A stretch of DNA of 64,000 bases from an uncultured Bacteroidales bacterium (GCA_964599365.1 CAZRFL010000007.1:12909-76908); one strand, 5' to 3'. Counted from the first letter of the stretch, positions 2,992-62,012 are shown. Program-made: numbers and translations. The notes: generated by a model from the sequence alone, not told the origin.

Positions 2992-3501
2992 TTACCAGTT
3001 AACGGCTGTTTTATTGAAAACATCGTCTACCAGATAACCTATAATTTCATCCAAAATAGAGCCTTCAACCGAAGCCAAAGATTGTGAACTGGGATAGTCT
3101 GCATAGCGCGAAAATGAGGTTTCGTAATTTTGGCTCTCATTTTTTTTGTTCACAAATCTGATGTTTATTGTAACTGTCAACCGGTTCATGGCGGCGGTTT
3201 GATTCCCCTGAATGGCAATAGGAGCCGTTGCATAACCTGTAATTTCCCCTGAGATGTCAAAATCGCCCCCGCTGTTCACCTGGTTGAGATTGGTTTGCGA
3301 AGTAAATCTCTCCCTCATAGCATCAGTGAGTTGCTGGCTTAACGAAGGTTTCACCAGAGCAGAAGTGTTTTTAAGATAATGAACAGAAAAGGTCTTTATT
3401 TCAGGGGGTATAGAGGCACCGGTAAAGGAATAATTCACCTTGCACGAAGTGACAAAGAAGACAATTGCTGCGAAAAAGCAATATGTAAGAATTTTTCTCA
3501 A
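2992..3501 (-). CDS. lptE: LptE-family LPS-assembly lipoprotein (Bacteroidota type)
   Basis: 169 aa. Lipobox FVTSC, then KVNYSFTGASIPPEIKTFSV...PSLSQQLTDAMRERFTSQTNL...GDFDISGEITGY...AAMNRLTVTINIRF...FNKTAVNW. This matches the pattern I know for Bacteroidota LptE. Confidence 0.8.
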   Translation of the reverse strand: MRKILTYCFFAAIVFFVTSCKVNYSFTGASIPPEIKTFSVHYLKNTSALVKPSLSQQLTDAMRERFTSQTNLNQVNSGGDFDISGEITGYATAPIAIQGNQTAAMNRLTVTINIRFVNKKNESQNYETSFSRYADYPSSQSLASVEGSILDEIIGYLVDDVFNKTAVNW

Positions 3502-3561
3502 GGTAAATTTTTTACAAAATTAGGAAAATATTTTGCTGCAGGCAGTTCAAAATAATTATCC

Positions 3562-4983
3562 TTACATTTTCATAAGCGGATATGATTTCTTATAATAGAA
3601 GACGTAGTTGCAACCGAAATGAACATTTATGTTTTTCGTATGGTAAGGGATTATTGCCGCCAGGATGTTGTCTGTTGCCAAAAATATCTGGAAAGGACCA
3701 AACCTGACAGATGAACCCAGACCGAGATTCAGGAAGTCTCTGTTCATATAGGAATAGCTGACAGCCACATCGAGAATATTACCAAACGTTCTGTTGTACG
3801 CTAATGTGAAAGCAGGATGAATGGTGTTTTCATAAATGTCGGCGCGGAAAACGGCTGTGGCGCGGTCCTTTTTCGAAATATTATAGCTGCCGCTAATATA
3901 GATCTTGGGATTAAGAGGACTGGCATAGAGTTTATTTTCCTGTTCAATGGTAAATATCTTCCCGATTGAATCAACGAGATTACTTAGAATGTCTTCTATT
4001 TTAGCAGTATCGTTTCTTATCAGTTCGTTGATCTCAATGCCTCTGAATGTAAAACTCTTGTCGGTTGACCCATATTTGCGTGTTCCCTGTTTCCAGAAAA
4101 TATAACCGAAGTCGATCAGGCTGGCCGAAACCGACCATTTTTCATCTATTTTATAAGTAGCTCCCACATCAATGCCAAAGCCCGGATTGCTAAAATTAAG
4201 CATATAATTCTTGACATCGGCTGTCTCGAATTTCTCTGTATCTGATGTGTCACCAATGACATCATAAATTTTTTCCGGAGCGGCAGTATGAATGATAACA
4301 TTTGAGTTGGCTGTGAGATCAAAATAATCTTCATCTACTCCTAATGTAGCATCACTCGACTTGGTCCAGATATTTGACAAGCCGAAAAGCAATTTGAATC
4401 TTCCCCCTACGGTCCATTTATTGTCGATCTGATTGGTATATCCAATGGCAAATTCCCGATAATGGGTCATGTCTATTCCAATGCCGTCGAAGTTGGCTTC
4501 CGATCCTATGAATTGCGAATTGCCTAATCCCGCCATGGATATCAGATCTTTCGGATAGGTCAGACGAAACTTAAATTTTTCGGTGAAGGAGAAATTGATG
4601 TATTGGGTGCGCTTGATCTTAAAACCAAAAGAAATCCATTCTATCTGTTGGTTAAGTGTCAGGTAATTCTTTTTTGAGAGTTTTTTGATGGTGTTCTCAA
4701 AGTCAAAGATCAGGGAGTCTTTTTCTTTATCGTAACGCAACAGATTATCCCACCTGAAACCGCTGTTGGAGACGCTGGTATAATTTGAAGACAAAATGGG
4801 AATAAATACCACGGGCATGCAGCCAATGTGATATTTCGGAATTGGCATCAAACCGGGATTATCATAATATTGCTGAGGAACCGAATTGAGGGAATAAATG
4901 GTCATATCGTCCTGAGCAAAGCTTGTGAAAGATACCAGGCAAAGTGTAATTATCGTGAGACAGGAAAGTATTTTTCTTTTCAT
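3562..4983 (-). CDS. Putative outer-membrane beta-barrel protein (family uncertain)
   Basis: 473 aa. Signal peptide ...SFTSFAQ. Alternating hydrophobic beta-strand pattern, rich in aromatic/G/N/S residues. No motif I can name with certainty. Confidence 0.5.
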   Translation of the reverse strand: MKRKILSCLTIITLCLVSFTSFAQDDMTIYSLNSVPQQYYDNPGLMPIPKYHIGCMPVVFIPILSSNYTSVSNSGFRWDNLLRYDKEKDSLIFDFENTIKKLSKKNYLTLNQQIEWISFGFKIKRTQYINFSFTEKFKFRLTYPKDLISMAGLGNSQFIGSEANFDGIGIDMTHYREFAIGYTNQIDNKWTVGGRFKLLFGLSNIWTKSSDATLGVDEDYFDLTANSNVIIHTAAPEKIYDVIGDTSDTEKFETADVKNYMLNFSNPGFGIDVGATYKIDEKWSVSASLIDFGYIFWKQGTRKYGSTDKSFTFRGIEINELIRNDTAKIEDILSNLVDSIGKIFTIEQENKLYASPLNPKIYISGSYNISKKDRATAVFRADIYENTIHPAFTLAYNRTFGNILDVAVSYSYMNRDFLNLGLGSSVRFGPFQIFLATDNILAAIIPYHTKNINVHFGCNYVFYYKKSYPLMKM

Positions 4984-5003
4984 CTGAGTCTTGCTTTTAA
5001 AGG

Positions 5004-6623
5004 TTAATAATTTACTATGAATTTTACCCGTAAAGCAATCCTCACAAGAAGTGAGTAATCGGAATAGAATTTTACCAATTCAGTCCCGCTTTGAGAAGTA
5101 AGAAGTTTGGCTCGTATAAAGATCTTTTTACAATTTTTAAGTGGTACTACCCGGTCGTGTTCCAACCGGCTTTCCGTATGTTTTTGTACGGATTGTGTTA
5201 CCCTGTAATCGGGAGCTCCATTGCAGGGAGCAGCGGTCAAGGTTTGTTGTTCGGGAACTAACAAAGAGTCTATAGCCTGACCGGCATCATTTAGGAAATA
5301 CATCTGCTGTATGGCCTCTACCGGGAACCCATTCGTGGTGTTGATATTGAAAAGCATAAATTCTACCTTGTCCATATCCTGACCGAACTCGAGATCAATG
5401 GTATCGCCCAAGATAAAATTCCAGGCTTTGCCAAACATGGGAATCTCAATCTGAGCATCAACATTTAGTCGGCTGGTATCGAGGGCAAAGTTGTTGGATA
5501 CTCCGCCACCGGGATTAGATAAACCTGAAATGTCTGCAATAAACTTTTTAGGTGCCATGGCTATGGCGTCCCAAATAGTACTGTTGGTTTTATCCAGATC
5601 GAAATGAGTTTCCATAATCTGTCCTAAGCCGGATGCGGCACCAATATTCCATGGAGAAGGAATTCCTGTTCCTGTCAGAGCCACATTACTGGTTCCAACG
5701 GGGCCATCGGTGGCAAAAAAGCTGTTAAACGTAAGTTGCAACGGCATGCCAAAAGAGTTGTAAGCATACACATGGACCATGGGGTTTTCGAAATTGACAT
5801 TGCCTTCAATGGTTTTGTTGAATATACGGATACTAACCGTGTCGTTAGGAAGGTCGAGGAGTATTTGTTTGAAATCGCCAAGAATCTTAGAAAACTTGAT
5901 ACCCTGAAAATATTCGCCCAGACTGAAATTATAGGGTGAATTGTTTGCTCCTCCCGAGCCGTGAAGTGTTACCGTGTAGGTAATGGACAAACGATTTTGA
6001 TTGCCGCCCGTATTGTCGAATAAGATCTTATATCCATCGAGGCTGAACTGAGGAGAAACAGATGACCCCGAAAAATATTCAATATTTTGGTTGAAAGGAA
6101 CTCCACCCATAGTTGCTTGCGGGATACTAACATTGATGGTGGCATTATGATTAAGATTGGAAGAATAGACTACGAAATTGAACATGCCGTCTTTGGCATC
6201 CAGTTCGTCTATCACCGCATTGTTGGGCATGGTAAAAGAATAATTGATGGTATTAGGGGCAGCGGTCAGGTCGGTCCCGAAAGGCAGAGCACCGGTAACG
6301 CTGAAATTGAAAGAACTGTTGAGATTCTGGTTGGGAATGGCCAAAAGATCTTCTGCTTTTTGCGAAAGGATGTTCTTTGTATAAACCAGGTAGAGGAATC
6401 CGCTGCCATCTTCTACAAAAAGATTGTCGTGATCGTAATCATCCAGAATGTCTTTCAAGGTCATATTAGAATAGATCAACGGCACAGCTACATCCGGCGA
6501 CCAGGTTCCGCCCTGTTCAATGCGGTTCACATCGAAGCGGTCTTTATAACAGGAGGTCATGCCCGAAGCAAGCACGAGCAATAGCAGAATAGTTATGTAT
6601 CGATTGATAAATGTTGATTTCAT
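5004..6623 (-). CDS. Hypothetical lipoprotein
   Basis: 539 aa. Lipobox LASGMTSC. N/S/T/G-rich beta-type composition. Codirectional with and 20 nt from the downstream beta-barrel gene. Confidence 0.5.
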   Translation of the reverse strand: MKSTFINRYITILLLLVLASGMTSCYKDRFDVNRIEQGGTWSPDVAVPLIYSNMTLKDILDDYDHDNLFVEDGSGFLYLVYTKNILSQKAEDLLAIPNQNLNSSFNFSVTGALPFGTDLTAAPNTINYSFTMPNNAVIDELDAKDGMFNFVVYSSNLNHNATINVSIPQATMGGVPFNQNIEYFSGSSVSPQFSLDGYKILFDNTGGNQNRLSITYTVTLHGSGGANNSPYNFSLGEYFQGIKFSKILGDFKQILLDLPNDTVSIRIFNKTIEGNVNFENPMVHVYAYNSFGMPLQLTFNSFFATDGPVGTSNVALTGTGIPSPWNIGAASGLGQIMETHFDLDKTNSTIWDAIAMAPKKFIADISGLSNPGGGVSNNFALDTSRLNVDAQIEIPMFGKAWNFILGDTIDLEFGQDMDKVEFMLFNINTTNGFPVEAIQQMYFLNDAGQAIDSLLVPEQQTLTAAPCNGAPDYRVTQSVQKHTESRLEHDRVVPLKNCKKIFIRAKLLTSQSGTELVKFYSDYSLLVRIALRVKFIVNY

Positions 6624-15252: not shown

Positions 15253-16572
15253 ATGTTCTGTAGGAAATTGTCAATGCAAATCATAAAACAATACGGGGTT
15301 ATCATCCTGCTTTTGTTCATTGGCCTTGTGATTTCAGGCTGCCACCGCGACCTTTCCGATCCCTTTGTTCCCAAGGATAAGAAGTTCAAAACCCAGTTCA
15401 AGTTCGACAAGAAAAGGAACCGTACCGTCGAGAAGCATGTTTCCTTTGCCAAAGAAAAAGGCAAGTTCAAAGATTCATTTGCTGGCAGCCACGGCAGGGG
15501 CAAAAAAGGCGGCGGAAGCCACGACTCCTATTCTTCCAAATCGAAAAAGAGCTATGGAGGCACCCGCTTCAGTAAATCGAAAGGACGTGTGGTAGAAAAA
15601 GGATTTTTACCCTCCAAACGCAACAATGATTCCTACTCTTCCAAGGCGGGCCACAAGGACAAGAAGCACCGCAAGGGCGGCAAAGACTCCTACTCCTCGA
15701 GCATGAAGAAACATGAGAGCGGCAACCGTTTCAGCAAGTCGAAGAACCGGGTAGTCTCTTTCAAAAATGGCAGCAAAGGCAAACGAAACGGCAGCGAAAG
15801 CTTCGGATCCAAGAGAAAGGACAAGTCAGGCAATTTCAGTTTCAGTACCTCCAAAAACCGTGTGGTTTCCAACAAGGGAAGCCGGGGAGGAAACCGTGGG
15901 GGTAAAGACAGTTACGGTTCGAAAGGCAAAAGGAACTCAGGGAATTTCGGGTTCAACAAATCGAAAAAGCGGGTGGTGTCCTTCAAAAAAGGCGGCCGCA
16001 ACCGCATCAGCGGTGCAGACAGCTATGGAGGCAAGACCAACAGCAAGGGCAGCATGTTCCGCTTCGACAAAAAGAGCAAGCGAATAGTCTCGAAAAAGAA
16101 ATTCCTGGTATTCGGTTCCAAGAAAAATAGCCGCGACATGGGTTCCTATGCCGGTAAGAAAAGAAACTCGGGAGGTATGTTCTCCTTTAATTCGAAAAAG
16201 CACAGGGTGACCCGAACCAAGGCGGTCTTCAACGGCTTCAAACGTTTCAGGGCGGGCGACAGCTTCGGAGGAAAGCGAAAAAGCAAGGGAGGCGAATTCA
16301 GCTTCAACGTAAAGAAAAAACGTGTGGGCAAAAGAACCCTGCTATTCAAACCCCGCGACACCGACCCGGGTTCTTTCGGAAGCAAAGGAGGCAAAAGAAA
16401 TTCGCTTTACAAACAGAACTCTTTCAGCAAGAAGAAAAAGCGCATACACCATCGCAACGGCTTCTTCTGGGATCTGTTCGGAGGCCGCAACAAAGTCAGC
16501 CGAAAGAAAGACGAACTGCAACTCGACCTGTTCGATCCGAAACAAAAACACAGAATGCATCTTGCTCGATAA
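15253..16572 (+). CDS. Extremely basic, K/R/G/S-rich tandem-module lipoprotein (orphan)
   Basis: 439 aa. Lipobox LVISGC. About 8 modules of ~37 aa with the pattern DS[YF]G[SG]K-x-SG-x-F-[SGR]-F-x2-SK-x-R[VI]V, for example GNRFSKSKNRVVSFK, GNFSFSTSKNRVVSNK, GNFGFNKSKKRVVSFK, SMFRFDKKSKRIVSKK. It is the only long ORF in the region. An alternative start exists at 15274. Confidence 0.65.
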   Translation: MFCRKLSMQIIKQYGVIILLLFIGLVISGCHRDLSDPFVPKDKKFKTQFKFDKKRNRTVEKHVSFAKEKGKFKDSFAGSHGRGKKGGGSHDSYSSKSKKSYGGTRFSKSKGRVVEKGFLPSKRNNDSYSSKAGHKDKKHRKGGKDSYSSSMKKHESGNRFSKSKNRVVSFKNGSKGKRNGSESFGSKRKDKSGNFSFSTSKNRVVSNKGSRGGNRGGKDSYGSKGKRNSGNFGFNKSKKRVVSFKKGGRNRISGADSYGGKTNSKGSMFRFDKKSKRIVSKKKFLVFGSKKNSRDMGSYAGKKRNSGGMFSFNSKKHRVTRTKAVFNGFKRFRAGDSFGGKRKSKGGEFSFNVKKKRVGKRTLLFKPRDTDPGSFGSKGGKRNSLYKQNSFSKKKKRIHHRNGFFWDLFGGRNKVSRKKDELQLDLFDPKQKHRMHLAR

Positions 16573-23326: not shown

Positions 23327-23477
23327 CTCAGTCGCAATAATTGATTGGAAGTAAAATTACAAATTTATATGAAGTAGGATAAGGAATTGAAAATTATTCT
23401 AACCAAAGCCACCAAAGCCCCCAGACTTTCTGAAACACAAATATTTTTTATCATTGGTGAACGGTTAAAAACATTTC

Positions 23478-26377: not shown

Positions 26378-26497
26378 TATGGTTTAAATTTAAAGTGACA
26401 TAAATAATGCACAAACAAAATTAAGTATTTTTTAATGACTTACTGAATGTAACAAGAAATTTCAGTTCCCTGCAAAGACGTGCCTTCCTGAGGTTGT

Positions 26498-27904
26498 TTA
26501 AACAGCAGTGATTTTTTTGTTTCGGGCCATGGAAGCAAAAACACCAATGGTGCAAAGTACTGCAAACAAAATGAACGACACATGCAGGCTTTGCATGAAT
26601 TCGTGCCGGTGTTCAGGTATGTGGGTGGCCTCACCTATATAGAGGTGAATGATGAGGGTAGCGATACCCATACTCAATACCTGCCCTGTCAGTCTCATGG
26701 TGCCAACCGTAGCAGAAACTATGCCGAGATAACGTTTATCCACGGCACTCATAATAGAATTGGTGTTGGGCGATGAAAATATTCCGAAGCCCGCCCCGAG
26801 AATCACGAGGCAAACAATTAGGAAAGCATTGGGCGAGGAAGCATCAAGAAAGGTCAGCAAAAACAGTCCCACCACGATGATTCCCATGCCAATGGACGAG
26901 AGCAGGTTTGAGTTGTACTTATCAGACATGCGTCCCGAAAAGGAAGCAAACAGCGTCATCACCAGGGGTTGGGCGATCAACAGCATACCGGCATCGCGGG
27001 GCGATAGGCCTTTGACATATTGCAAATACAAACTCAGCAGAAAGCCAATGGCAAAGGTGGCAGCATAGTTAATTAGAGCGGCAAGATTCGAGAAAGCAAA
27101 TACCCGGTTGCCTCTGAACAGTTGAATATTCAACACAGGAAAGGGAGTTTTCAGTTCGACCATCACAAACCAAACCATGCCCAGCACTCCCACTGCTGTA
27201 AAAGCAATTGCCAAGGGGTCGGGGAGTTTGGTGAACCCGAACATCAGCATGCTCATGAACACCATGTAGATGAGCGAGCCCTTATAATCGAATTTCTCGC
27301 CTTTGGCATCGGCCCATTCTGTTTTTTTTAGAAATACCAATATCATGATGATCACGAATATCCCGAAGGGAATGGTGATATAGAACAAACTGCGCCAGCC
27401 CAGATATTGCGTCAGTATGCCTCCCAGAAAAGGTGCGGCAGACAATCCCAAATACACCGCCGAAACATTGATGCCTATAGCTTTTCCTCTTTCGTGAGGT
27501 GGAAAGGCAGAAGTGATCAAAGCCATTCCTGTACCAAACATCATGGCGCCGCCCAACCCTTGTATCACGCGGGCGCTTAAAAGCATGGGAGTGGAAACGG
27601 ATACGGCAGACAATAGAGAACCTAGGGTTACGATAATGTTTCCCAAAAGGAATATCCTTTTGCGGCCGGCCATATCGGCTATCTTGCCAAAGGGCACCAA
27701 AAATACTGCCGACGATAACAAAAAGGTCATACCTACCCAACTCATGGTGATGGCGTTCATGCTGAATTCTTCGGCAATTTTCGGCAAAGCAATGTTGACA
27801 GCCGCCCCCAGAAAAGGGTTGATGAAAGAGGTTACTATAACCAGCAGCAGTATGATGTTCTTTTTATTGGCAGCCACAGGAGCATCCATAACAGGGTTTG
27901 ACAT
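26498..27904 (-). CDS. MFS transporter, DHA2 (14-TM drug/metabolite:H+ antiporter)-like
   Basis: 468 aa, ~14 TM. Contains GKIADMAGRKRIFLLG and typical MFS loops. Its ATG lies 2 nt after the stop of the upstream GGDEF gene. Confidence 0.8.
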   Translation of the reverse strand: MSNPVMDAPVAANKKNIILLLVIVTSFINPFLGAAVNIALPKIAEEFSMNAITMSWVGMTFLLSSAVFLVPFGKIADMAGRKRIFLLGNIIVTLGSLLSAVSVSTPMLLSARVIQGLGGAMMFGTGMALITSAFPPHERGKAIGINVSAVYLGLSAAPFLGGILTQYLGWRSLFYITIPFGIFVIIMILVFLKKTEWADAKGEKFDYKGSLIYMVFMSMLMFGFTKLPDPLAIAFTAVGVLGMVWFVMVELKTPFPVLNIQLFRGNRVFAFSNLAALINYAATFAIGFLLSLYLQYVKGLSPRDAGMLLIAQPLVMTLFASFSGRMSDKYNSNLLSSIGMGIIVVGLFLLTFLDASSPNAFLIVCLVILGAGFGIFSSPNTNSIMSAVDKRYLGIVSATVGTMRLTGQVLSMGIATLIIHLYIGEATHIPEHRHEFMQSLHVSFILFAVLCTIGVFASMARNKKITAV

Positions 27905-27906
27905 TT

Positions 27907-28482
27907 TCAGATTTGTTTCAGTTTTTTGTTTTCTTTCAATGCCTGTTCCGCTTTTTCAAGCAAGGTCTCCACGCTGTCTTTTCCCTTTTCAAAAGCTGCC
28001 ACTCCGAATGAAAAAGTAAGGGTGTATTCCATTTTGTGAGTCTCATTTTTATGGATATGGCTTTTGCTTTTCTCAGCAATGCCATTCAGCTTTTCTATCG
28101 TCTCCGCCACAGGGTAAGGCAATATCAGGATAAATTCATCTCCCAACCGGAACCTTGCAAGAAAAGCATTCTCGGGTAATTCTCCTTTTAGAGATTCAAC
28201 AAAGTCTTGAAGCACCTTGTCTCCTAAAGCATAGCTGTGATTATTAAATCTCCTGAACCCATCAATGTCCAGAATGGCAATAGAAAAGTCAGTGTCTTTC
28301 TGCTTATGGATGCGTAAGGTTTTGTTCAGCTTCCTTCGAAAACTTCTATAGTTGGGTAAAGAGGTCAGCTCGTCTGTTTCCGAAAGCCGGAAATAATACT
28401 TCAGCTTGGTAACCAATAGCAGTATGATTGCCAGCAAGGCGACCAGGGCGGGGATGATAAATAATGAATGCTGACAACACAT
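27907..28482 (-). CDS. Single-TM protein with a degenerate GGDEF domain
   Basis: 191 aa with an N-terminal TM. Contains DELTSLPNYRSF, FSIAILDIDGFRRFNNHSYALGDKVL, and ARFRLGDEFILIL. The signature reads LGDEF rather than GGDEF, and NNHSY replaces the usual NDxxGH. Confidence 0.75.
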   Translation of the reverse strand: MCCQHSLFIIPALVALLAIILLLVTKLKYYFRLSETDELTSLPNYRSFRRKLNKTLRIHKQKDTDFSIAILDIDGFRRFNNHSYALGDKVLQDFVESLKGELPENAFLARFRLGDEFILILPYPVAETIEKLNGIAEKSKSHIHKNETHKMEYTLTFSFGVAAFEKGKDSVETLLEKAEQALKENKKLKQI

Positions 28483-28553
28483 ACTATGGTTTTTTCAGGG
28501 ATAAGGCTTAGGCCATGTAAAATGCAGGCTTCCCTTTAGGAGGCCCGTGAAAC

Positions 28554-29978
28554 TTATTTATTTCTTTTTCTCAAAGGATATTCTTTTTTCTGCAGATAGT
28601 CGTAGCGCAGATTGCGTCCCGGCTGATAACACAATGCCATGATAGAATCCTGTGATTCTTTTATGGTGCTGTATTCAGCAAAATCAAGAGTACGTATGAT
28701 GGCTTCGAACACCCTGATGGCTCCCGAATGGTCGCATATAAGGATGCGTTTGCCCAGGTTGCGGTTCAGCAGGTCTACAAAGCTGAAAGCGATTCTCCAG
28801 TCGGCTTCAATCAGTGTCTCGCCTTCGGGATAATGATAAAAACGGTTCTTGAATATTTTGGACACCTTGGCTTTCACATCAGGTGTGATCTCTTTGCCAC
28901 CGCTGTATATTTTGGTGGCCTCTTCAATGATCTCATTTTTGTAGCGGAAGGTCAATGCGCCGTACTTCTGCGAATTCAATCCAAAGACCGCATTGAACGA
29001 CATATTGGTATAGCCTGCTTCCTGAAGGAAGTAACGTGCGGTTTGTTCAGTGTTCTCCGATTCGCTTCCGTAAACCATAATGGGAGCGTCTTTCGACCAT
29101 AGCCACATAGGATATCCGCTTTTGTCCAGCACATCCACAGCCATTTTAAAGTCTTTACCCAATTCTTTGGCAGTGACAATGCCTTCTTCTTTCAGGAAGT
29201 TGCTTTGCGAACCCGAAATACGACGGTTTTTATCCCAGGTGTCCCAATAACCCGAACCAACAAATTCCGGGTTATCTCCACCCGATTCGTGTATGGATTT
29301 ACCATGGCGTATCATGATCAAATGGGTTTGGTTCATGGGCACATAAGCCTGTGGAAACATAGGGATGGCTTTTTCGTTGGGCAGCCAGACGATGGATTCA
29401 TTCATAATGAGGCCGCTGCCGTCTTCCAGCATTCTTCCCGAAGTACGTCTGCTGCCGTCGGGGTTGGTGGCCATATCGTCGGCCAGTATCAGCTTCGAGC
29501 GATAACGGGTCATGGTCGAACCTATGGGGGGAATGTTCTGAGGACATAAATTGTCGCTGAATTTGCTTATGCTGAAAGTCTTCAAAAGCAAACGGCGGAA
29601 GCTGTCGTTTTTGATCAGGCCGTTCCATGCCAGATAAAAGAGCGTTTGATCGGCATTGGGTATACGGTGTTTGATGAATTGGTATTTGCTTTTGATATAG
29701 TTCTGAGGCGACATGTCCTTCTCCAGGGTATCGATAAAGAAATAAACATCCTTACTGATGACCTTCAATTTGTGAACAAAATCGTTGGTAACATCAGCTT
29801 CGCTGAGTTTGATCTTGTCGCCGTATACCAGCTTCAAAAAAGCCACGTCTTGTTTAACACTTTCGAGGGTATGACAATTATGAAATTCGGAATGTTCGCG
29901 GCGCGATATCCCGCTATATGGCTTTACTTCTGGCTTGTTTTCGGCTTTTTCCTGTTTGTCTTTTGCGTTTTCTTTCAT
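28554..29978 (-). CDS. Histidine-phosphatase-superfamily protein with an unknown ~230-aa N-terminal domain
   Basis: 474 aa. Contains LIMIRHGKS (RHG motif), SESENTEQTA, YPEGETL, and ICDHSGAIR (the second catalytic His context). Confidence 0.65.
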   Translation of the reverse strand: MKENAKDKQEKAENKPEVKPYSGISRREHSEFHNCHTLESVKQDVAFLKLVYGDKIKLSEADVTNDFVHKLKVISKDVYFFIDTLEKDMSPQNYIKSKYQFIKHRIPNADQTLFYLAWNGLIKNDSFRRLLLKTFSISKFSDNLCPQNIPPIGSTMTRYRSKLILADDMATNPDGSRRTSGRMLEDGSGLIMNESIVWLPNEKAIPMFPQAYVPMNQTHLIMIRHGKSIHESGGDNPEFVGSGYWDTWDKNRRISGSQSNFLKEEGIVTAKELGKDFKMAVDVLDKSGYPMWLWSKDAPIMVYGSESENTEQTARYFLQEAGYTNMSFNAVFGLNSQKYGALTFRYKNEIIEEATKIYSGGKEITPDVKAKVSKIFKNRFYHYPEGETLIEADWRIAFSFVDLLNRNLGKRILICDHSGAIRVFEAIIRTLDFAEYSTIKESQDSIMALCYQPGRNLRYDYLQKKEYPLRKRNK

Positions 29979-30170
29979 AGTTCTGTTTAATTAAGAATGA
30001 TTCTTCATAAAAAAAAGAGTGCAAATGTACAAAAAAACGGGCTAATAGTATATATATTAGTGCAGAAAAATACAGATCCCCATGTCAGAATTTCTACCAA
30101 AGTTCCTGTTTCTAAAAGATCATTGCCTGATCATAGCTCCTCTTCCCATATCCTCAAACAAGGAATTATT

Positions 30171-31784
30171 TTAGAAGATGAAGTCAGTCGAAAGAAAATT
30201 AGACTTATTGTCCCGTATGATTTCCTTCACAATTTGCTTGTTCATATCGCTGTCCTTGGCTGCAAACAAGGTCCTAATAGAGAAAACCCTTAAGGCATCT
30301 GAAACGGATAAGGTTCCTTCTGCAGAATCTTTTCTTCCAGTGAACGGAAAAATATCCGGCCCTCTCTGACATTGGGAGTTGATGTTTACACGGCAAACCT
30401 GATTGATCAGGGTATCCACAAGCCGGGCTATCTGATCCGAATCGCTGCCAAAAATGCTGGCTTGCTGTCCGTAGTCGGAGTTGATGACATATTCCAGAGG
30501 CTCATTGATATCCTTATAGCTTACCACCGGTATCACAGGACCAAACTGTTCTTCATGGTATATTCTCATGTTGTGGTTCACATTGAATAGTATGGCCGGA
30601 ATGAAGCAGCTGCGGTTATAGCTGCCGCCTCCCGGATTTATCACTCTGGCGCCCGACTTTAGGGCATCATCTATCAGCTCCGTAAGGTATTCCGATTTGC
30701 CCGGCTCCGGCAAGGGTGTGATATTTACATTGGCGTCCCAGGGCATACCCATTTGTAGTTTTTCTACGGCTACCGACAGTTTTTCTAAAAAAGGATGAAC
30801 TATATCCTCATGAACAAAAATAATTTTCAAAGCCGTGCACCTTTGCCCGTTGAACGACAGTGCGCCCATGATGCATTCTTTGACCGTGGCATCCAGATCA
30901 GCATCGTGAAGCACAATGGCGGGGTTTTTGGCTTCCAGTCCCAGCACACATTTCAATCGGTGAGGTTTGGGATGTTGTTTCTTTAAAATATCAGCCACGC
31001 GGCTTGAGCCAATGAAGGCAAGCACATTCACCCTGCCCGATTCCATCAGCGGAGTGATCACTTTTTGGCCATCGCCATACACCGTATTGACAACTCCTTT
31101 CGGAAAAGCTTCTTTAAAAGCATTCAGAAGCGGATAATGCAGCAGCACTCCTAGCTTGGGCGGTTTAAAGATAATGGTATTGCCCATAATGAGGGCGGGT
31201 ATCAGGGTGGTGAAAGTTTCGTTCAGGGGATAATTATAAGGGCCCATGCATAGCACCACTCCCAGGGGTGCTCTTCTGATCTGGGCGATGATGCCCTGCG
31301 AAATAGTGAAACGCGATGAGTCCCTATCGAGGGTTTTCAGGGCCTCTATGGTATCATTGATATAATCCACCGTACGGTCAAATTCTTTTTCGGAATCGGG
31401 AAGGCTTTTGCCTATCTCCCACATTAGCAGGCGGACAACGCTTTCCCTTTGCTCCTTCATCAGGAGTACGAACTTTTTGATGCATTCGATTCTTTGTTCC
31501 ACGGTCATGGCGGGCCAGGCACCTTTGCCATTATCAAAAGCCGCCACGGCGGCCTCCAGGGCTTTCATGGCTTCCTCTTTTTCCATGAGAGGGTAACTGC
31601 CTATGGTGTTGCTGGAGCCTTCTCCGTCCTGCACAAACACGGGCGAATGAACTTCATGTTGCAGGCCTTTCCAATGATGTATCTCTCCGTCGAGGAGGTA
31701 TTCGGTTTGTTCTATAGGGCTGGGCAGCAGGTATGCCTGCGGAATATTGTTTTTTTGCGGGAATGGGTTATCTGATATTTTCAA
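30171..31784 (-). CDS. Aldehyde dehydrogenase family protein (GapN-like, non-phosphorylating)
   Basis: 537 aa. Contains [11 protein letters not shown] (catalytic Glu context), [10 protein letters not shown] (catalytic Cys), and EEQFGPV. Confidence 0.8.
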
Positions 31785-33456: not shown

Positions 33457-34497
33457 ATGATGAAACTGTCTTTCCTGAAAAGAACCTCTGCTTTGTTAGC
33501 CCTTATTCTGCTGCTATCCGTTACGAATGTCAGCAGCCAGTCCAGTACCGATGAGCCTGTGTTGGGCTTCGGATTTTTAAACAAGATCGTTGGATTGTGG
33601 AACGGCAAGGTTGTTACCTCTACTTCTTCGGGTAGTTTCGACAAATGGTATGTCGATTTCCGCCCGGTTTCCCCCTCGCAAGTGTCTCAATATTCTATGC
33701 TGGATTCCAATACGGTGAATATTACTAGCTATTTCGTGGTGAAATACAATAACAAACTGGCCATAGCCCAGCGTACCGAAGGTTGTTTCCAGGACAAATG
33801 CTGCGTTACCTACGAAATAATGGATTCGGTGAACGAAGCTTCGGGTTATTATCGTTTTGTAGATTTTGTAGGCGGAAAGAAAAGGGCTTCCACCATTTAT
33901 CATTTCTCGAAAGAGGGTTTTGTTCAGGAAGTATGGACCAACAAGTTTAATCAATCCCCTGTGTTGAAACTGCATTCGAAGTTCGAACCTGCATTGACCA
34001 GCCGCGAGGCCGCCCGCGATGCCATCAATGAATTTAAGTTTCCTCAGCCCAAAGCAGTGAACGACTTTACAGGCATCTTTGGAAGCATGAAAGAAAGCAT
34101 CTATTTCAATCTCGACGAGGATCCTTATAATGGCGCTTCCCAGCCTCCCATGGGAACGGTTACGGTGAATATCACCATAGACCCTTCACTGAAAACCAGC
34201 AAAACCGATGAGTTATGCCTGTTGCTGACTACCGAACCCCTTTTCGACGGACTGAAATACGTTCCCGAACGCTTGAATTACCTTTCGAAGTACGTGTATT
34301 TGGGGGTTGGAACGAAATCGTATACACTTAAAAACGTGCATCCCGGAAAGTATTATTTGTATTCATACGACGATATCAACGGGGATAAGATGCACAAAAA
34401 GGGCGACTATATGAGTTCCAGCCTGAACAGTAGTTTTACTGTGGGTGCCAACGGCAAGGTCAGCATTGATACTAAGATTGATTTTGTGATTCCTTAA
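33457..34497 (+). CDS. Hypothetical secreted protein
   Basis: 346 aa. Signal peptide ...VTNVSSQ. The C-terminal YTLKNVHPGKYYLYSYDDINGD... suggests a beta-sandwich. No family recognised. Confidence 0.5.
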   Translation: MMKLSFLKRTSALLALILLLSVTNVSSQSSTDEPVLGFGFLNKIVGLWNGKVVTSTSSGSFDKWYVDFRPVSPSQVSQYSMLDSNTVNITSYFVVKYNNKLAIAQRTEGCFQDKCCVTYEIMDSVNEASGYYRFVDFVGGKKRASTIYHFSKEGFVQEVWTNKFNQSPVLKLHSKFEPALTSREAARDAINEFKFPQPKAVNDFTGIFGSMKESIYFNLDEDPYNGASQPPMGTVTVNITIDPSLKTSKTDELCLLLTTEPLFDGLKYVPERLNYLSKYVYLGVGTKSYTLKNVHPGKYYLYSYDDINGDKMHKKGDYMSSSLNSSFTVGANGKVSIDTKIDFVIP

Positions 34498-38731: not shown

Positions 38732-40138
38732 ATGAAGAATATTTTCACCAAATTACACTTGTTAATTGGTATACTTCTTATTTCCTGTTCCGGAACACAT
38801 TCATCTAAAAACACCCAAACGCCGGAATTGGAAAAGGGGAAAGTAATTCCTTCGGTGGCTTGTGTAAAAAACGTTTCGCACACCTATGCCCTTTATCTAC
38901 CTAAGAGTTTTGTTGCCGACAAAAAATATCCTCTCATCCTTTGTTTCGATGCTCATGGCTCGGGTTATAAGCCGGTAGATTTATTACAGGAACAAGCCGA
39001 AAAATTCGGCTATGTCATTGTTGGGTCTAACGTTTCGAAGAACGGCATTTCCATGCAGGCCAATTTCGAACATTACGACATCTTGCTGGATGATATTTTG
39101 ACACGATTTGGAATAGACAAACTCCGAATTTACACCTGCGGGTTTTCGGGAGGAAGTCGCGTGGCAAGTACCATTGCCATTTCCAAAGGCGGCATTTCGG
39201 GTGTGATAGGTTGTTCTGCCGGATTCCCTCCAGTGAAGGATGGCATTCGTCAAAAGTTCGATTTCTTTGGGTATGCCGGTAACGATGACATGAACTATGC
39301 CGAAATGCTTGCTCTGGACAGGACCCTTGAAAACAGTGGGTTCAGACATCAACTGGTGGTGTTCAACGGAACACACGACTGGCCACCCAAAGAGTATATG
39401 GCCGAGAGCATTGTTTGGACCGAATTGAATGCCATGAAAGATGGTAAAAAGCCAGTTGACAAGTCATTCGTCAGCGAGCAGTTGGCCACTTTCGACAAAC
39501 AATATACCGACTCACAGAATTCTGGCAACGCTTACGAAGAATACCTCCTGACCAAAAAATTAATCAACTATTTCAAAGGGCTGGCTGATGTAAAGAAATA
39601 CGAAGATCAACTGTCTTCATTGGAAAAAGATCAGGCCGTACAGAACGGAATAAAGAAAGCACTGGCTGATGAGCTAAAAGAACAAACGCTTCAGCAACAG
39701 TATGTCGAAAAATTGTCCTCAGAAAATATTGCCTGGTGGAAGGGCGAAGTCAAGCGCCTGGATAATTTCATTGCTACCACAAAGGACGAAACAGAAAAGC
39801 ATTTGCTGAAACGAGTACTCGAATATCTGAGTCTGGTTTTATATTCCAACTGTTCTTCTGCCTACGCCCAGGGTAGCTATGCCGATGCGGAACATTACAT
39901 TGAATTGTACGCCATGATCGATCCCGACAATGCCGAGCCTGAGTTTATGTGGGCACAGATATTTGCCCGCAAAAAAGATATCGAAAAGTCCATATCACAT
40001 CTGAAAAGGTCAGCCGAATTAGGCTTTAAAGAGAAGATTCGCATCGACAACGACAGCATTTTCATTAAACTGAATAACGATAAGCGAATGACAGAAGTAC
40101 TGAATATGATAGCAAATAATCAATCCAAAACACCATGA
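38732..40138 (+). CDS. Lipoprotein with an alpha/beta-hydrolase (esterase-like) N-domain and a TPR-like C-domain
   Basis: 468 aa. Lipobox LLISC. Contains YALYLPKSF...YPLILCFDAHGSG and IYTCGFSGGSRVA (nucleophile-elbow-like G-x-S-x-G). The C-terminus is helical-repeat. Confidence 0.6.
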   Translation: MKNIFTKLHLLIGILLISCSGTHSSKNTQTPELEKGKVIPSVACVKNVSHTYALYLPKSFVADKKYPLILCFDAHGSGYKPVDLLQEQAEKFGYVIVGSNVSKNGISMQANFEHYDILLDDILTRFGIDKLRIYTCGFSGGSRVASTIAISKGGISGVIGCSAGFPPVKDGIRQKFDFFGYAGNDDMNYAEMLALDRTLENSGFRHQLVVFNGTHDWPPKEYMAESIVWTELNAMKDGKKPVDKSFVSEQLATFDKQYTDSQNSGNAYEEYLLTKKLINYFKGLADVKKYEDQLSSLEKDQAVQNGIKKALADELKEQTLQQQYVEKLSSENIAWWKGEVKRLDNFIATTKDETEKHLLKRVLEYLSLVLYSNCSSAYAQGSYADAEHYIELYAMIDPDNAEPEFMWAQIFARKKDIEKSISHLKRSAELGFKEKIRIDNDSIFIKLNNDKRMTEVLNMIANNQSKTP

Positions 40139-44043: not shown

Positions 44044-45306
44044 ATGATTAAGAAAACTATTCTCATTATATTGATGTCCATTCCTTTTCTGGCGTTGGCA
44101 CAACAGGAAGAACAAACCCCTGCTTTTGGTATCAGATTTTCGGGCTATGTCAAAAACGACATCTTTTTCGATTCGCGCAAAACCTGTAATGCACTCGAAG
44201 GTGCTTTTTTGCTTTATCCCGACAATGTTAAGTTCGACAATGACAATGTGGATATCAATGCGCATACCCGACTGACTTTTCTGGCCATTCAATCGCGTTT
44301 GCATGGCGATATTTTTGGCCCCGACGCTTTTGGAGCCAAAACTTCAGGTGTGATCGAAGCTGAATTTACCGGCACACAGATTGGCAATGCCAATGGTTTC
44401 CGTTTGCGCCACGCTTATGGAAAATTGTCGTGGGAGTCTACCGACCTCCTCATCGGACAGACCTGGCATCCCATGTTTGTCGAAGGTTGTTTTCCTGAGA
44501 TCATGGCAATGAATACCGGATCCCCGTTTCAGCCTTTTTCGCGCAATCCTCAGATTCGTGTAACCCAAAAACTCAAAGATTTTAAGTTTATGCTTACCCT
44601 GGCTTCACAGTTGGATTTTACCAGCTGGGGCGGCACCGATGGCATACGCAACGCTACCCTGCCCGATATGAATATCCGCATACAATACCAGCATTTTAAC
44701 GAAGACAAAACCCGCGAACTGTTTTTCGGAGCGGGCATTGATTATAAAGTGGTGGTTCCACGCCTGGTTACCGACAGCAATTATGCCACCAATGCCGCTC
44801 TCAATACCTATGCCGCTATGGCTTTTTTCAAACACCGCAGCAAATATATCACCTTCAAAATGGAAGGAGTCTACGGACAGAACCTCTACGATCAGGTGAT
44901 GTTGGGAGGTTATGCTTACAAATATACCACCGACAGTACCACTATTGCACGGGGCGATTTCGATTATACTTCGCTCAACAATGTTTCGGCCTGGGCAGAT
45001 ATTGCCACCAATGGCAGCAAGATACAGTTTGGTATTTATGGTGGATATACCAAGAATTTGGGCTCAAGATTCAATATTCTTAACTGGACTCAGGGCTCAA
45101 AGTTCTTTTCGAGAGGCTGGAATATCGACTATGTTTACCGCGTTTCGCCCCGCATAGTTTTCATCTCTGGTAAAATGAAAATGGGCGTTGAGGGCGATTA
45201 CACCGTGGCCGGATATGGCGATTCAGTCAACAGCCTGGGCGATGTGCAAAATGTAAAACCTGTAAGCAACATCAGGTTGATGTACTCTTTCTTCTATTAT
45301 TTTTAG
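44044..45306 (+). CDS. Outer-membrane porin-like beta-barrel protein
   Basis: 420 aa. Signal peptide ...LALAQQ. Alternating beta-strand pattern. Aromatic C-terminus ...MYSFFYYF. Confidence 0.6.
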   Translation: MIKKTILIILMSIPFLALAQQEEQTPAFGIRFSGYVKNDIFFDSRKTCNALEGAFLLYPDNVKFDNDNVDINAHTRLTFLAIQSRLHGDIFGPDAFGAKTSGVIEAEFTGTQIGNANGFRLRHAYGKLSWESTDLLIGQTWHPMFVEGCFPEIMAMNTGSPFQPFSRNPQIRVTQKLKDFKFMLTLASQLDFTSWGGTDGIRNATLPDMNIRIQYQHFNEDKTRELFFGAGIDYKVVVPRLVTDSNYATNAALNTYAAMAFFKHRSKYITFKMEGVYGQNLYDQVMLGGYAYKYTTDSTTIARGDFDYTSLNNVSAWADIATNGSKIQFGIYGGYTKNLGSRFNILNWTQGSKFFSRGWNIDYVYRVSPRIVFISGKMKMGVEGDYTVAGYGDSVNSLGDVQNVKPVSNIRLMYSFFYYF

Positions 45307-45788
45307 GCTATTAGGCTGTTAGGCTAATAGGCTTTTAGGAAGTGGGCTGCGAGGAATCATGCAAACAAGGTGTTCTTTGCGGTCAGAATTTTTTTAACCA
45401 CAAAGCTCACCAGGAAGTCACCATGGTCACAAAGTAATTCTGCCTCCATCTACTACATTTGGCCAATTAAATCGCCACAGATTCGCAGATTTTATTCTAC
45501 TAAGCAATAATATTCGCTTACGCAGAGCTAAATTTGATTATAATTAACGCTGAGCGTAAATTTAAAAATTTCATTTTTAAATTTTACGAAAGTAATCTGC
45601 GAACGGAGGGAAGCGACCTCACGAAGTCCTATGAAATAAAATAATATTCTGAGTAATCTGCGGCTATGAATTTCAGTTATCCATTAGGGTGATATTAAGC
45701 TCACTTAATCGAAATACTGAAATCTGGCTCCGGTCTTCCGTCTTCTGAATTCTTACTTCTGAATTCTGACTTCTGAATTCTGACTTCC
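45304..45788. repeat. Intergenic block of short-period stutters and inverted 'word' repeats
   Basis: taggctNN 8-mer x 5 (45304-45340, beginning at the porin stop codon). cgcagatt/aatctgcg words in inverted orientation (45478-45490 versus 45593-45600 and 45653-45661). 14-bp unit acttctgaattctg x 3.5 (45738-45788), abutting the HD gene stop. Confidence 0.75.
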
Positions 45789-46432
45789 TAAAAATTCCAT
45801 TCTTCGAAGAAATTCTTCAGAAACTCTTCCATAAACTCATGTCGCTTTTCGGCCAATTCCCTGGCGGCTGAGGTATGCAGCCTGTCTTTGAGCAAGAGCA
45901 ATTTTTCATAGAAATGATTGATGGTATGCGAGACTTTGGTCTTATAAGCCTCGAAATCGTCATGCATCACAGGCAATACTTCGGGATCGTAGATTTCCCT
46001 GTTTTTTGAGCCACCATAAGCAAAAGTCCGGGCAATGCCAATAGCCCCCAGGGCATCCAGCCTGTCGGCATCCTGCACCACGCTGGCTTCTATCGAATCA
46101 GGCGTGGTGTCTTCGCCCGCACCTTTATACGAAACCTGAGCGATGATATGCAGCACCTTTTCTCTGGTTTCTGCCTCCACATCCAGGCTTTTCAGCCAGT
46201 TTTCGGCATGGGCCGACCCGGCAACGTTAAATTTCCAGTCGTCCACATCGTGCAATAAGGCGGCAAGCCTAACTAAAAACAGATCGGCTTTCTCTTTTTC
46301 GGCCAGATACAATGCAAGCTTTTCCACACGATAGATGTGCCACCAATCGTGCCCCGTCGATTCGCCCGCGGAACCCGATTTTACGAATGCTATGGTTTGC
46401 GCTATCATGTTTTGTTGAGTTTCGGTGAGCAT
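45788..46432 (-). CDS. HD-domain phosphohydrolase
   Basis: 214 aa. Contains HDWWHIYRV...AALLHDVDDWK...VQDADRLDALGAIGIAR. Confidence 0.85.
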   Translation of the reverse strand: MLTETQQNMIAQTIAFVKSGSAGESTGHDWWHIYRVEKLALYLAEKEKADLFLVRLAALLHDVDDWKFNVAGSAHAENWLKSLDVEAETREKVLHIIAQVSYKGAGEDTTPDSIEASVVQDADRLDALGAIGIARTFAYGGSKNREIYDPEVLPVMHDDFEAYKTKVSHTINHFYEKLLLLKDRLHTSAARELAEKRHEFMEEFLKNFFEEWNF

Positions 46433-60737: not shown

Positions 60738-62012
60738 ATGGGTTTTATTGAAGAATTACGATGGAGAGGCATGATACATGATATCATCCCGGGTACGGAA
60801 GAACAACTGGCAAAAGAAACCACTCAGGCATACATAGGTTTCGATCCTACTTCTGATTCCTTGGGCGTGGGCAATCTGGTACAGGTGATGACCTTGCTTC
60901 ATTTTCAGAAAGCCGGTCACAAACCCATTGCGTTGGTGGGTGGTGCTACGGGCATGGTGGGCGATCCCTCGGGAAAATCGCAGGAACGAAACCTGCTTTC
61001 GGAAGATATTTTGCAGCACAACCTGGCTTGCCAAAAGAAACAATTGGAGAAATTTCTTGATTTCGATTGCGGAGCCAACTCTGCCGAAATTGTCAACAAC
61101 TACGACTGGTTTCGCGATTTCAATTTTCTTGATTTCATTCGCGATGTCGGAAAGCACATGACCATTAATTATATGCTGAGCAAAGACAGCGTTCAAAACC
61201 GTTTGGAGAATGGCATGTCGTTCACCGAGTTCAGCTATCAACTGGTGCAGGCCTACGATTTCTATCATCTTTTCAAAAATCACAACGTAAAGTTGCAAAT
61301 GGGAGGTTCCGATCAATGGGGCAATATCGTATCGGGCACCGAACTCATCCGCCGAAAAGCAGGTGGTGAAGCTTATGCACTTACAACACCTCTAATAAAA
61401 AAGGCCGACGGCACCAAGTTCGGAAAAACCGAAAGCGGTAATGTATGGCTCGATCCGCAGAAGACCTCGCCTTACAAATTTTACCAGTTTTGGCTCAATG
61501 CCAGCGATACGGATGCTGCCAACTATATAAAAATATTTACACTTTTCAATAAGCAGGAGATAGATGCCATTCTGCTGCAGCACAACGAAGCTCCTCAGCT
61601 GCGACATTTGCAAAAGATTTTGGCTAAAGATATCACTACACGCGTGCATTCCGAAGCTGATTATCTGGCTGCGGCAGAAGCTTCTGAGATCCTTTTTGGG
61701 AAAAGTACATCGGATGCTTTATTAAGATTGTCCGAAGAAATGTTGTTGTCGGTTTTCGAAGGAGTTCCTCAGGTGAGTATTCCTATGTCAGACTTTGAAA
61801 GTGGTATGCCCATAGTTGATTTTCTGGGCGAAAAGTCTATGATCACTGCATCGAAAGGCGAGGCCCGCCGAATGCTAAAGGAGGGAAGTATCAGTGTCAA
61901 CAAAAACAAAATAGATGAGTTATTTGTGGTCGACAACCGACATTTTATCCGCGACAAATATATTTTGCTGCAAAAAGGCAAAAAGAATTATTATCTGATC
62001 ATTGCTGTTTAA
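60738..62012 (+). CDS. tyrS: Tyrosine--tRNA ligase
   Basis: 424 aa. Contains [25 protein letters not shown] (HIGH region), KFGKTES (KMSKS region), and a C-terminal S4-like domain. Confidence 0.94.

Follow-up and report, generated by a model that had tools for sequence, protein, structure and literature searches.

A two-gene cassette of a histidine-phosphatase-superfamily protein and a small membrane GGDEF protein in uncultured Bacteroidales

In a 64,000-nucleotide stretch of DNA from an uncultured Bacteroidales bacterium (GCA_964599365.1 CAZRFL010000007.1:12909-76908; the whole stretch is referred to here as the window), three genes on the minus strand follow closely upon one another. The first encodes a protein of the histidine-phosphatase superfamily (HisPhos), the second a small protein with one transmembrane (TM) helix and a GGDEF domain (TM-GGDEF), and the third a transporter of the major facilitator superfamily (MFS) of the DHA2 type. 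A preliminary description of the DNA read these as an operon in which a cyclase-like enzyme, a phosphatase and an exporter could make, trim and export a nucleotide-derived molecule, or in which the genes form a signalling module that controls the transporter. The locus therefore raises the question of whether the three genes constitute a single system, and if not, which of them belong together and what they may do. The codirectional arrangement is as first described, with intergenic gaps of 71 nt (HisPhos/GGDEF) and 2 nt (GGDEF/MFS) in the open reading frame (ORF) layout; we note that the MFS start is ambiguous (27890-27904, minus strand), as initiation at Met1 gives the 2-nt gap, while Met6, which is used in some public gene calls, gives a protein of 463 aa and a gap of 17 nt.

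Comparison of gene neighbourhoods shows that the first two genes travel together. Using HisPhos as the anchor we identified 43 genome loci, in metagenome-assembled genomes (MAGs) of uncultured Bacteroidales/Bacteroidota, in Cloacimonadota, and in two Nitrospirota-labelled MAGs, and compared their surroundings by tblastn and ORF clustering, treating as informative those Bacteroidota loci that extend far enough downstream. Besides the window, a small TM-GGDEF gene lies directly 3′ of HisPhos in every informative Bacteroidota locus (29/29), and in a reciprocal check in public assemblies five of five GGDEF-family members (P0121, P0144, P0150, P0167, and P0169) are immediately 3′ of a HisPhos gene encoding 474–483 aa. 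Because the pair recurs in 29 other loci, the order of the first two genes is not a chance arrangement. The flanking genes vary by lineage, and include MoaC/MoaA/MoeA, DnaG, pyruvate:ferredoxin oxidoreductase (POR), Tpx, and Por-tail proteins, among others. The true conserved unit is thus shown to be a two-gene HisPhos/TM-GGDEF cassette, specific to uncultured environmental Bacteroidales, and our literature searches for this gene pair found no description of it. One locus departs in detail: at L036:419-1854, HisPhos is recovered in three tblastn pieces in different frames and the downstream GGDEF is shortened to 141 aa, reflecting either a pseudogene or indel errors of a long-read MAG.

The transporter behaves quite differently. 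Apart from the same species (L043, contigs L051-L054), a single close relative (L001) has it 3′ of the pair, and the remaining 27 loci with the pair do not, so that of the co-occurrence first suggested, the HisPhos/GGDEF part stands and the MFS part does not. The attraction of a make-trim-export system (or of its variant, a transporter-controlling pair) is easy to see, given three codirectional genes with gaps of 71 and 2 nt, apparently one promoter motif, and the same gene order in a second species, where HisPhos is 93% identical. The gene order in that relative is uninformative, however, because the entire block from an aldehyde dehydrogenase (ALDH) gene to an FAD-oxidase gene is syntenic with the window. 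The transporter itself is of an ordinary DHA2-like drug/H+ antiporter type: it matches MFS_1 (E 3e-68), its top NCBIfam model is the DHA2/EmrB model TIGR00711 (efflux_EmrB) at 182.1 bits versus a cut-off of 230.2, and none of the specific resistance models in NCBIfam is matched at cut-off. A crude hydropathy analysis gives at least 12–13 segments and, together with the length of the protein, would fit about 14 TM helices; dN/dS (the ratio of non-synonymous to synonymous substitution rates) is 0.05–0.08 in two pairs. The neighbourhood comparison thus rejects the exporter as a part of the system, and the MFS gene is a local passenger of the HisPhos/GGDEF cassette. With the comparative support removed, the make-trim-export proposal and its transporter-controlling variant are largely refuted, and we regard them as very improbable.

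The distribution of HisPhos outside of the Bacteroidales bears on the trimming step as well. TM-GGDEF is absent from all 13 Cloacimonadota, Nitrospirota-labelled, or unclassified HisPhos loci, and in the Cloacimonadales HisPhos stands solo beside dnaA, groES, thioredoxin (trx), and lon, with neither a GGDEF nor an MFS gene adjacent. GGDEF-linked and solo HisPhos proteins differ consistently at just 8 positions, mostly conservatively, and the two Nitrospirota-labelled solo proteins have the Bacteroidales state at 7 of these 8. Partner-specific adaptation of HisPhos is rejected on these grounds, and the protein apparently serves one and the same function whether or not the cyclase is present. 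Since HisPhos occurs solo in Cloacimonadota with a near-identical sequence, its role is not tied to trimming a GGDEF product, as had been proposed.

Several of the solo copies are of interest in their own right. The two Nitrospirota-labelled genes (L008:6974-8434 and L009:6974-8347) encode proteins 83–84% identical to Bacteroidales copies and lie on Thermodesulfovibrionales/Nitrospira-binned contigs without TM-GGDEF, reflecting either recent horizontal transfer or mis-binning; L009 also carries a canonical 302-aa GGDEF protein with a Cys-rich N-terminal region about 1 kb upstream of HisPhos (5051-5959). A MAG of Candidatus Zophobacter franzmannii (Cloacimonadota) has two HisPhos paralogues on separate contigs (L030:7001-8350 and L031:287-1678), which are 62% and 60% identical to the query.

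What, then, is the protein with which HisPhos is paired? It belongs to the GGDEF domain family by profile (PF00990, E 4e-26, 92.1 bits versus a threshold of 23.8; TIGR00254, 84.9 versus 37.4) and is minimal, as the preliminary description had it: hydropathy and the domain match agree that nothing but one hydrophobic segment precedes the catalytic domain, and there is no sensor domain. A family profile built from 29 members recovered 43 clusters of 161–205 aa, and the family is discrete, its members scoring from 263 down to 126 bits and generic GGDEF proteins at 107 bits or less, even though identity within the family falls to about 28–30%. The TM segment is present in 37 of the 43, the six exceptions being short ORF calls of 161–169 aa. 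The 77 comparators used below come mostly from one REC-GGDEF clade and are an example of the canonical state more than a survey of it; a more diverse alignment panel agrees with them.

Alignment with solved GGDEF domains and with the canonical panel reveals a set of departures that are fixed across the family. The first reading of the window protein, an RLGDEF signature (aa 112–117) with a shorter NNHSY in place of the upstream motif, is accurate, except that the hairpin contains a one-residue insertion and not a simple G-to-L change; LARFRLGDEF aligns with LARYG-GEEF, with R-L replacing the first Gly. All 43 database members have R[YF]R[LFSH]GDEF (the second Arg is a Lys in some loci), and none has a GG(D/E)EF or (G/S/A)G(D/E)EF signature. 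Likewise, FRRFNN-HSYALGD aligns with FKRINDRHGHAAGD, such that the ND..GH loop is one residue shorter and its Gly-His is lost; the N..GD spacing is six residues in 43/43 family members versus seven in 77/77 comparators. The RxxD I-site, sought five residues upstream of the hairpin, is found in 0/43 members (the window protein reads ENAFLA there), and the Arg of the C-terminal K..GR(N) motif (PleD R446) is present in 0/43 versus 76/77 comparators.

The residues that are kept tell a different story. Among 29 family sequences D37 (in the DxLT start), D72, N80, G87, D88, R110, G114, D115, E116, and F117 are invariant, and K186 is nearly so (at least 90%). With equivalences placed via alignment to solved GGDEF domains, we take D72 to correspond to PleD D327 (metal), N80 and D88 to N335 and D344 (guanine), R110 to R366, and K186 to K442; the only canonical metal-, guanine-, or phosphate-contacting residue lost family-wide is then R446. 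Conserved residues that are not catalytic are few and fold-defining (T40, N44, R46, F76, and G160). Because D72, D115, E116, N80, D88, R110, and K186 are kept, the protein is probably GTP-binding and catalytic, and the overall pattern of conservation favours both functions; because it is the residues for catalysis and substrate binding that are maintained, a domain in decay, or one with a solely structural role, is disfavoured. A Hypr-GGDEF type is excluded, as the guanine-specifying Asp88 is invariant rather than Ser or Thr. The gain of a basic residue in the longer hairpin together with the loss of R446 suggests a re-arranged triphosphate grip. The dN/dS of 0.09–0.23 (about 0.14, in five fairly close pairs) indicates purifying selection, and the gene, while less constrained than HisPhos, is clearly maintained. 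The label 'degenerate' that was first given to the domain is thus misleading, and by its residues TM-GGDEF would function like a diguanylate cyclase, although it is not to be counted among the proven ones.

An alternative is that the domain is catalytically dead, and acts as a membrane anchor, a regulatory partner, or a GTP or c-di-GMP receptor which recruits or gates HisPhos at the membrane. The disruption of the hairpin by the insertion and the loss of the GH and K..GR motifs could be read in this way, as could its evolution at a rate 3–10 times faster than that of HisPhos, and there is precedent, since degenerate forms account for about a quarter of GGDEF domains and include several receptors (PMC3974145). 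However, such receptors usually bind through the RxxD I-site, which 43/43 members lack; the conserved residues, bar the few fold-defining ones, are catalytic or substrate-binding, and form no separate surface patch; and HisPhos shows no adaptation to a partner between the GGDEF-linked and solo lineages. A dead domain therefore seems unlikely to us, though not far-fetched.

HisPhos is under stronger constraint. Its homologues are 60–93% identical across Bacteroidales and Cloacimonadota, with a mean column identity of 64% and long invariant stretches in both halves of the protein, and dN/dS is 0.02–0.05 (about 0.03) in five fairly close pairs. No TM segment is seen (the maximum 19-residue hydropathy is 0.96), and the Pfam family His_Phos_1 (PF00300) matches aa 297–455 only, at 31.5 bits versus a cut-off of 21.7. 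Taking the two genes together, we consider the view that HisPhos/TM-GGDEF is a real, selectively maintained module of two unusual proteins to be well supported by their conservation. An AlphaFold2 (AF2) model of HisPhos based on 52 sequences has a predicted local distance difference test (pLDDT) score of 85 and a predicted template-modelling (pTM) score of 0.85, the latter implying domains that are confidently packed; it comprises a disordered Lys/Glu-rich tail (aa 1–27), a helical domain (38–161), three strands (180–207), and an alpha/beta core (218–464). The top Foldseek matches of the core are cofactor-dependent phosphoglycerate mutase (dPGM) and bisphosphoglycerate mutase (BPGM) (E 4e-11, 17–21% identity, TM-score to target 0.6–0.69).

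Further examination of the core shows both agreement with this fold and departures from it. The RHG...H contexts noticed at the outset are present (RHG at aa 224–226, and H417), and with them the RHG and second His that characterise branch 1 of the histidine phosphatases; a second phosphate-pocket Arg and a Glu proton donor are not found at the aligned positions, which are occupied by Asn309 and Ser336, both of them invariant. When the HisPhos profile is aligned with a dPGM chain, GLNSQKYGAL falls opposite LNERHYGAL and SESENTEQT opposite S..SRANDT, and the equivalents of dPGM Tyr92 and Lys100 are kept; this alignment is weak by sequence (E 0.21), and residue equivalence rests on motif and fold, with which the strand and helix boundaries of the model agree. 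The dPGM models themselves score below threshold (TIGR01258, 16.6 bits versus 81.7; PRK14120, 16.7 versus 366). By its predicted fold, its RHG motif, and its second His, HisPhos is nonetheless a member of the histidine-phosphatase superfamily.

The N-terminal part of HisPhos had been called unplaceable, and so it proves in Pfam, Foldseek, and profile searches, although it extends over about 215 aa, with the first 27 disordered, rather than about 230. The pLDDT of this domain is mostly above 85 within the HisPhos model, and a separate model of it, at 78, is rated confident. There is no Pfam match; no PDB structure is matched by Foldseek at an E below 0.13, and TM-scores are 0.26 or less; and an exhaustive HMMER search with an N-domain profile against 1.84 billion representative proteins recovers only a single full-length 50%-identity cluster, plus fragments of its own family. 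The domain is thus an orphan: none of these searches places it in a protein of different architecture, and it is never found fused to GGDEF. The HisPhos family profile does give weak matches (E 0.2–0.9, over aa 18–123) to four CRISPR type III Csm2 small-subunit chains; a Csm2-like N-domain was rejected, as the fold search of the confident model returned neither Csm2 nor any other significant match, and these matches are probably compositional noise.

Such matches, along with a weak Pfam match of the GGDEF domain to the Cas10 palm domain (E 9e-4), the TM segment in the cyclase, and the variable genomic contexts of the pair, might call to mind an anti-phage defence system or a mobile two-gene cassette, in which a nucleotide-signal generator is coupled to an effector. 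We find this extremely improbable. The Cas10 match lies below the gathering threshold and reflects a shared palm fold, and the fold search does not back Csm2. PADLOC-DB v2 has no match at E ≤0.1 to HisPhos, GGDEF, or MFS, and there are no integrases or transposases in the flanks of the pair, which contain housekeeping genes instead. A dN/dS of about 0.03 and 60–93% identity across phyla, as seen for HisPhos, are atypical of defence genes.

Could the product of the remodelled site differ from c-di-GMP, for example linear pppGpG or some further guanine-containing nucleotide, with HisPhos as the dedicated receptor or as a phosphotransfer or processing enzyme? The hairpin insertion, loop deletion, and R446 loss are fixed family-wide while the catalytic residues are invariant, adjacency of the two genes is strict, and the HisPhos site is also non-canonical (N309 and S336 are invariant) and is joined to an orphan cap domain; moreover, the first four sequenced Bacteroidetes genomes encode no diguanylate cyclases (PMC1183210). 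Nevertheless, both guanine-reading residues are canonical, such that the protein is not of the Hypr type, and the solo HisPhos of Cloacimonadota is essentially identical in sequence. We therefore rate this possibility as distinctly unlikely. In its boldest form, R-Φ-R/K-Φ-GDEF would define a new catalytic GGDEF class that uses a lengthened hairpin and a re-positioned phosphate-binding Arg and makes a product other than c-di-GMP, for instance a guanine nucleotide that is linear or linked in another way, with the acid-less, orphan-domain HisPhos as its dedicated receptor or phosphotransfer partner in a private second-messenger circuit, a scheme that we consider rather improbable.

Expression of the genes together is suggested by the arrangement of putative signals. 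A pattern scan finds a single upstream match to the Bacteroidetes-type −7 promoter motif (Table 1), and neither the 71-nt spacer nor the GGDEF/MFS junction contains one; there are also no terminator-like sites in the gaps between HisPhos, GGDEF, and MFS. With one upstream promoter motif and gaps lacking promoter-like and terminator-like sites, the three genes are plausibly read as one transcript from one promoter in this genome. The operon that was first described thus holds as regards tight packing and promoter motif, but a functional three-gene operon is not co-conserved. A further −7 match falls within the coding sequence of the MFS gene; between genes, the next on the minus strand is that preceding ispG, at 26416-26423. 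The motif (TAnnTTTG) occurs 79 times in the whole window versus 61.6 ± 7.6 in shuffles, and many occurrences are just 5′ of gene starts, such as the one before ispG and that at 23360-23367 (FAD/Fe-S oxidase); both the excess and the placement fit a Bacteroidota origin. No Rfam family reaches its gathering score in the window, hence there is no c-di-GMP riboswitch, and riboswitch or leader control of the cassette was rejected, there being nothing credible around it at E ≤5.

We therefore favour, tentatively and at a little less than an even balance, a composite reading in which a sensor-less membrane cyclase is co-expressed with HisPhos as an independently functional phospho-enzyme. The GGDEF protein would be an active enzyme and not a dead receptor, most likely one that binds GTP and carries out nucleotidyl transfer of the GGDEF type, yielding c-di-GMP by default; two of its domains would be kept together by the TM helix and stalk. 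As there is no sensor domain and no RxxD I-site, and only a TM helix leading into a stalk, the cyclase would be constitutive, free of feedback, and membrane-localised, and its output would follow the expression level of the cassette. HisPhos would be the older, self-sufficient partner, as seen where it is solo in Cloacimonadota, and would probably form a phospho-histidine (at His225) on a specific phospho-metabolite, in a pocket shaped by the orphan N-domain. The two would be linked by co-expression or by a small molecule, with the cyclase reporting or relaying how strongly the HisPhos pathway is expressed, or the nucleotide modulating HisPhos. A tight complex of the two proteins seems less likely, because what is conserved in the cyclase is the active-site set and HisPhos has no partner-specific changes.

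Several points weigh against this composite reading. The activities of both proteins are predicted from sequence and models, and the common transcript is read from motifs. In the hairpin, where a small Ala or Ser is known to be tolerated, the first Gly gives way to two much bulkier residues (Arg/Lys plus Leu/Phe), so that the cyclase activity, or the identity of its product, could be different. The ND..GH loop has also lost its highly conserved Gly-His. HisPhos, without a canonical proton donor and short of one Arg, may turn over very slowly or serve to bind rather than to catalyse. The GGDEF conservation that argues against a complex does not point to any specific link with HisPhos either. 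Finally, among the larger ORFs of the window Pfam detects no EAL, HD-GYP (HD_5), or PilZ domain, and the window thus shows no sign of a c-di-GMP network.

Table 1. Coordinates (window numbering) of the genes and features of the HisPhos/TM-GGDEF locus
Feature	Coordinates	Strand	Description
Bacteroidetes-type −7 promoter motif TACATTTG	30022-30029	-	about 44 nt 5′ of the HisPhos ATG; from pattern scan, consensus match only
HisPhos	28554-29978	-	474-aa soluble histidine-phosphatase-superfamily protein; anchor gene of the conserved pair
Orphan N-terminal domain, aa 28–215	29334-29897	-	six/seven helices (aa 38–161), then three beta-strands (aa 180–207)
dPGM-like catalytic core, aa 216–474	28557-29333	-	from Foldseek and motif alignment
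R224-H225-G226 nucleophile motif	29301-29309	-	invariant in 52 sequences
N309, in place of dPGM Arg62	29052-29054	-	invariant
S336, in place of dPGM Glu89	28971-28973	-	invariant
H417, second catalytic-core His	28728-28730	-	invariant in 52 sequences
HisPhos/GGDEF spacer, 71 nt	28483-28553	-	no terminator-like or promoter-like site
TM-GGDEF	27907-28482	-	191 aa; one N-terminal TM helix, short stalk, GGDEF domain
Single TM segment, aa ~5–25	28408-28470	-	Kyte-Doolittle 19-residue mean up to 3.1
N80-N-H-S-Y-A-L-G-D88	28219-28245	-	guanine-binding Asn and Asp kept; one residue deleted, Gly-His lost
Active-site hairpin R110-F-R-L-G-D-E-F117	28132-28155	-	one-residue insertion relative to RxGG(D/E)EF
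MFS transporter, DHA2 type	26498-27904	-	468 aa; lineage-specific downstream neighbour, outside the conserved pair

Elsewhere the window is unremarkable chromosomal DNA, encoding BamA, OmpH, UppS, NAD kinase, PdxJ, TyrRS, RNase HII, LptE, and peptidases. A 214-aa HD-domain protein (45788-46432, minus strand; PF01966, E 4e-12) has no HD-GYP (HD_5) match at E ≤1e-4 and is for that reason no evidence of a c-di-GMP phosphodiesterase. A hybrid sensor kinase of PAS-GAF-HisKA-HATPase-REC architecture lies at the window edge (62009-63958, minus strand), and Pfam matches nothing at E ≤1e-4 in five ORFs of 346–539 aa (5004-6623, minus strand; 15253-16572, 33457-34497, 38732-40138, and 44044-45306, plus strand). 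Just 5′ of HisPhos in the window lineage is an aldehyde dehydrogenase gene (30171-31784, minus strand), whose best NCBIfam matches, to lactaldehyde dehydrogenase and GapN-like models, are all below cut-off. In L006 and L041 (~3300-6500, minus strand) two unrelated ALDH-family genes (23% identity) lie divergently 5′ of HisPhos, and the recurrence of ALDH genes near HisPhos may be coincidence.

The cassette is instructive in several respects. A discrete, selectively maintained GGDEF family would show how environmental Bacteroidales use or re-purpose GGDEF chemistry, and, with two residues standing in for the first Gly while the catalytic residues are fixed, it provides a natural experiment for deciding when a GGDEF protein should be called active; current rules of thumb would mis-annotate the family as 'degenerate'. 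HisPhos, with strong constraint over two phyla, an orphan N-domain, and an acid-less site, is a clear target for work on structure and function. The finding also corrects the tempting but unsupported story of a molecule made, trimmed, and exported by the products of three adjacent genes.

Comparison with characterised systems shows where each of these proteins agrees with a known group and where it departs from one. The transporter resembles the EmrB/QacA-type drug:H+ antiporters, with its MFS_1 match and TIGR00711 as best model, but is under the subfamily cut-off. The closest structural matches of HisPhos aa ~216–470 are GpmA, PGAM1, and BPGM, with which it shares the RHG motif; in the comparison with dPGM the second His reads DHSG against AHGN, and the LN..x-Y-G-A-L....K stretch, including the Tyr92 and Lys100 equivalents, is present. 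It differs from dPGM and BPGM in its low identity (17–21%), in the Arg62 to Asn309 and Glu89 to Ser336 replacements, in an insertion of about 35 aa after RHG, and in the 215-aa orphan N-terminal extension.

With the canonical diguanylate cyclases, such as PleD and WspR (the nearest solved sequences are PDB 4wxo, 6zxb, and 1w25), TM-GGDEF shares the fold, the DxLT start, the metal Asp, the (D/E)E pair, the guanine Asn and Asp, the pre-hairpin Arg, and the C-terminal Lys. Unlike them, it has an R-Φ-[R/K]-Φ-G-D-E-F hairpin with one residue extra and the first Gly lost, an ND..GH loop one residue shorter without Gly-His, no RxxD I-site or K..GR(N), and one TM helix alone in place of a sensor or receiver domain. 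The Hypr-GGDEF enzymes, which make cyclic GMP-AMP (cGAMP) and are defined by a Ser at the position where an Asp otherwise reads guanine (PleD D344), are likewise variant GGDEF proteins with altered chemistry, and TM-GGDEF differs from them by its invariant D88. Other departures from GG(D/E)EF are seen in PelD, PopA, and CdgA, c-di-GMP receptors that typically bind via the I-site or a degenerate active site, and in YybT/GdpP, the ATPase-type GGDEF domain of which is highly degenerate (PMC3974145). TM-GGDEF is their opposite, having its catalytic residues intact and no I-site. Further parallels are the natural AGDEF and SGDEF proteins VCA0965 and ECA3270, which are active cyclases making c-di-GMP (PMC3974145). 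These also have a non-Gly residue at the first signature position and an otherwise intact site; whereas in them the replacement is a small Ala or Ser with no change of length, in TM-GGDEF it is a charged residue plus a bulky hydrophobic one, fixed throughout the family.

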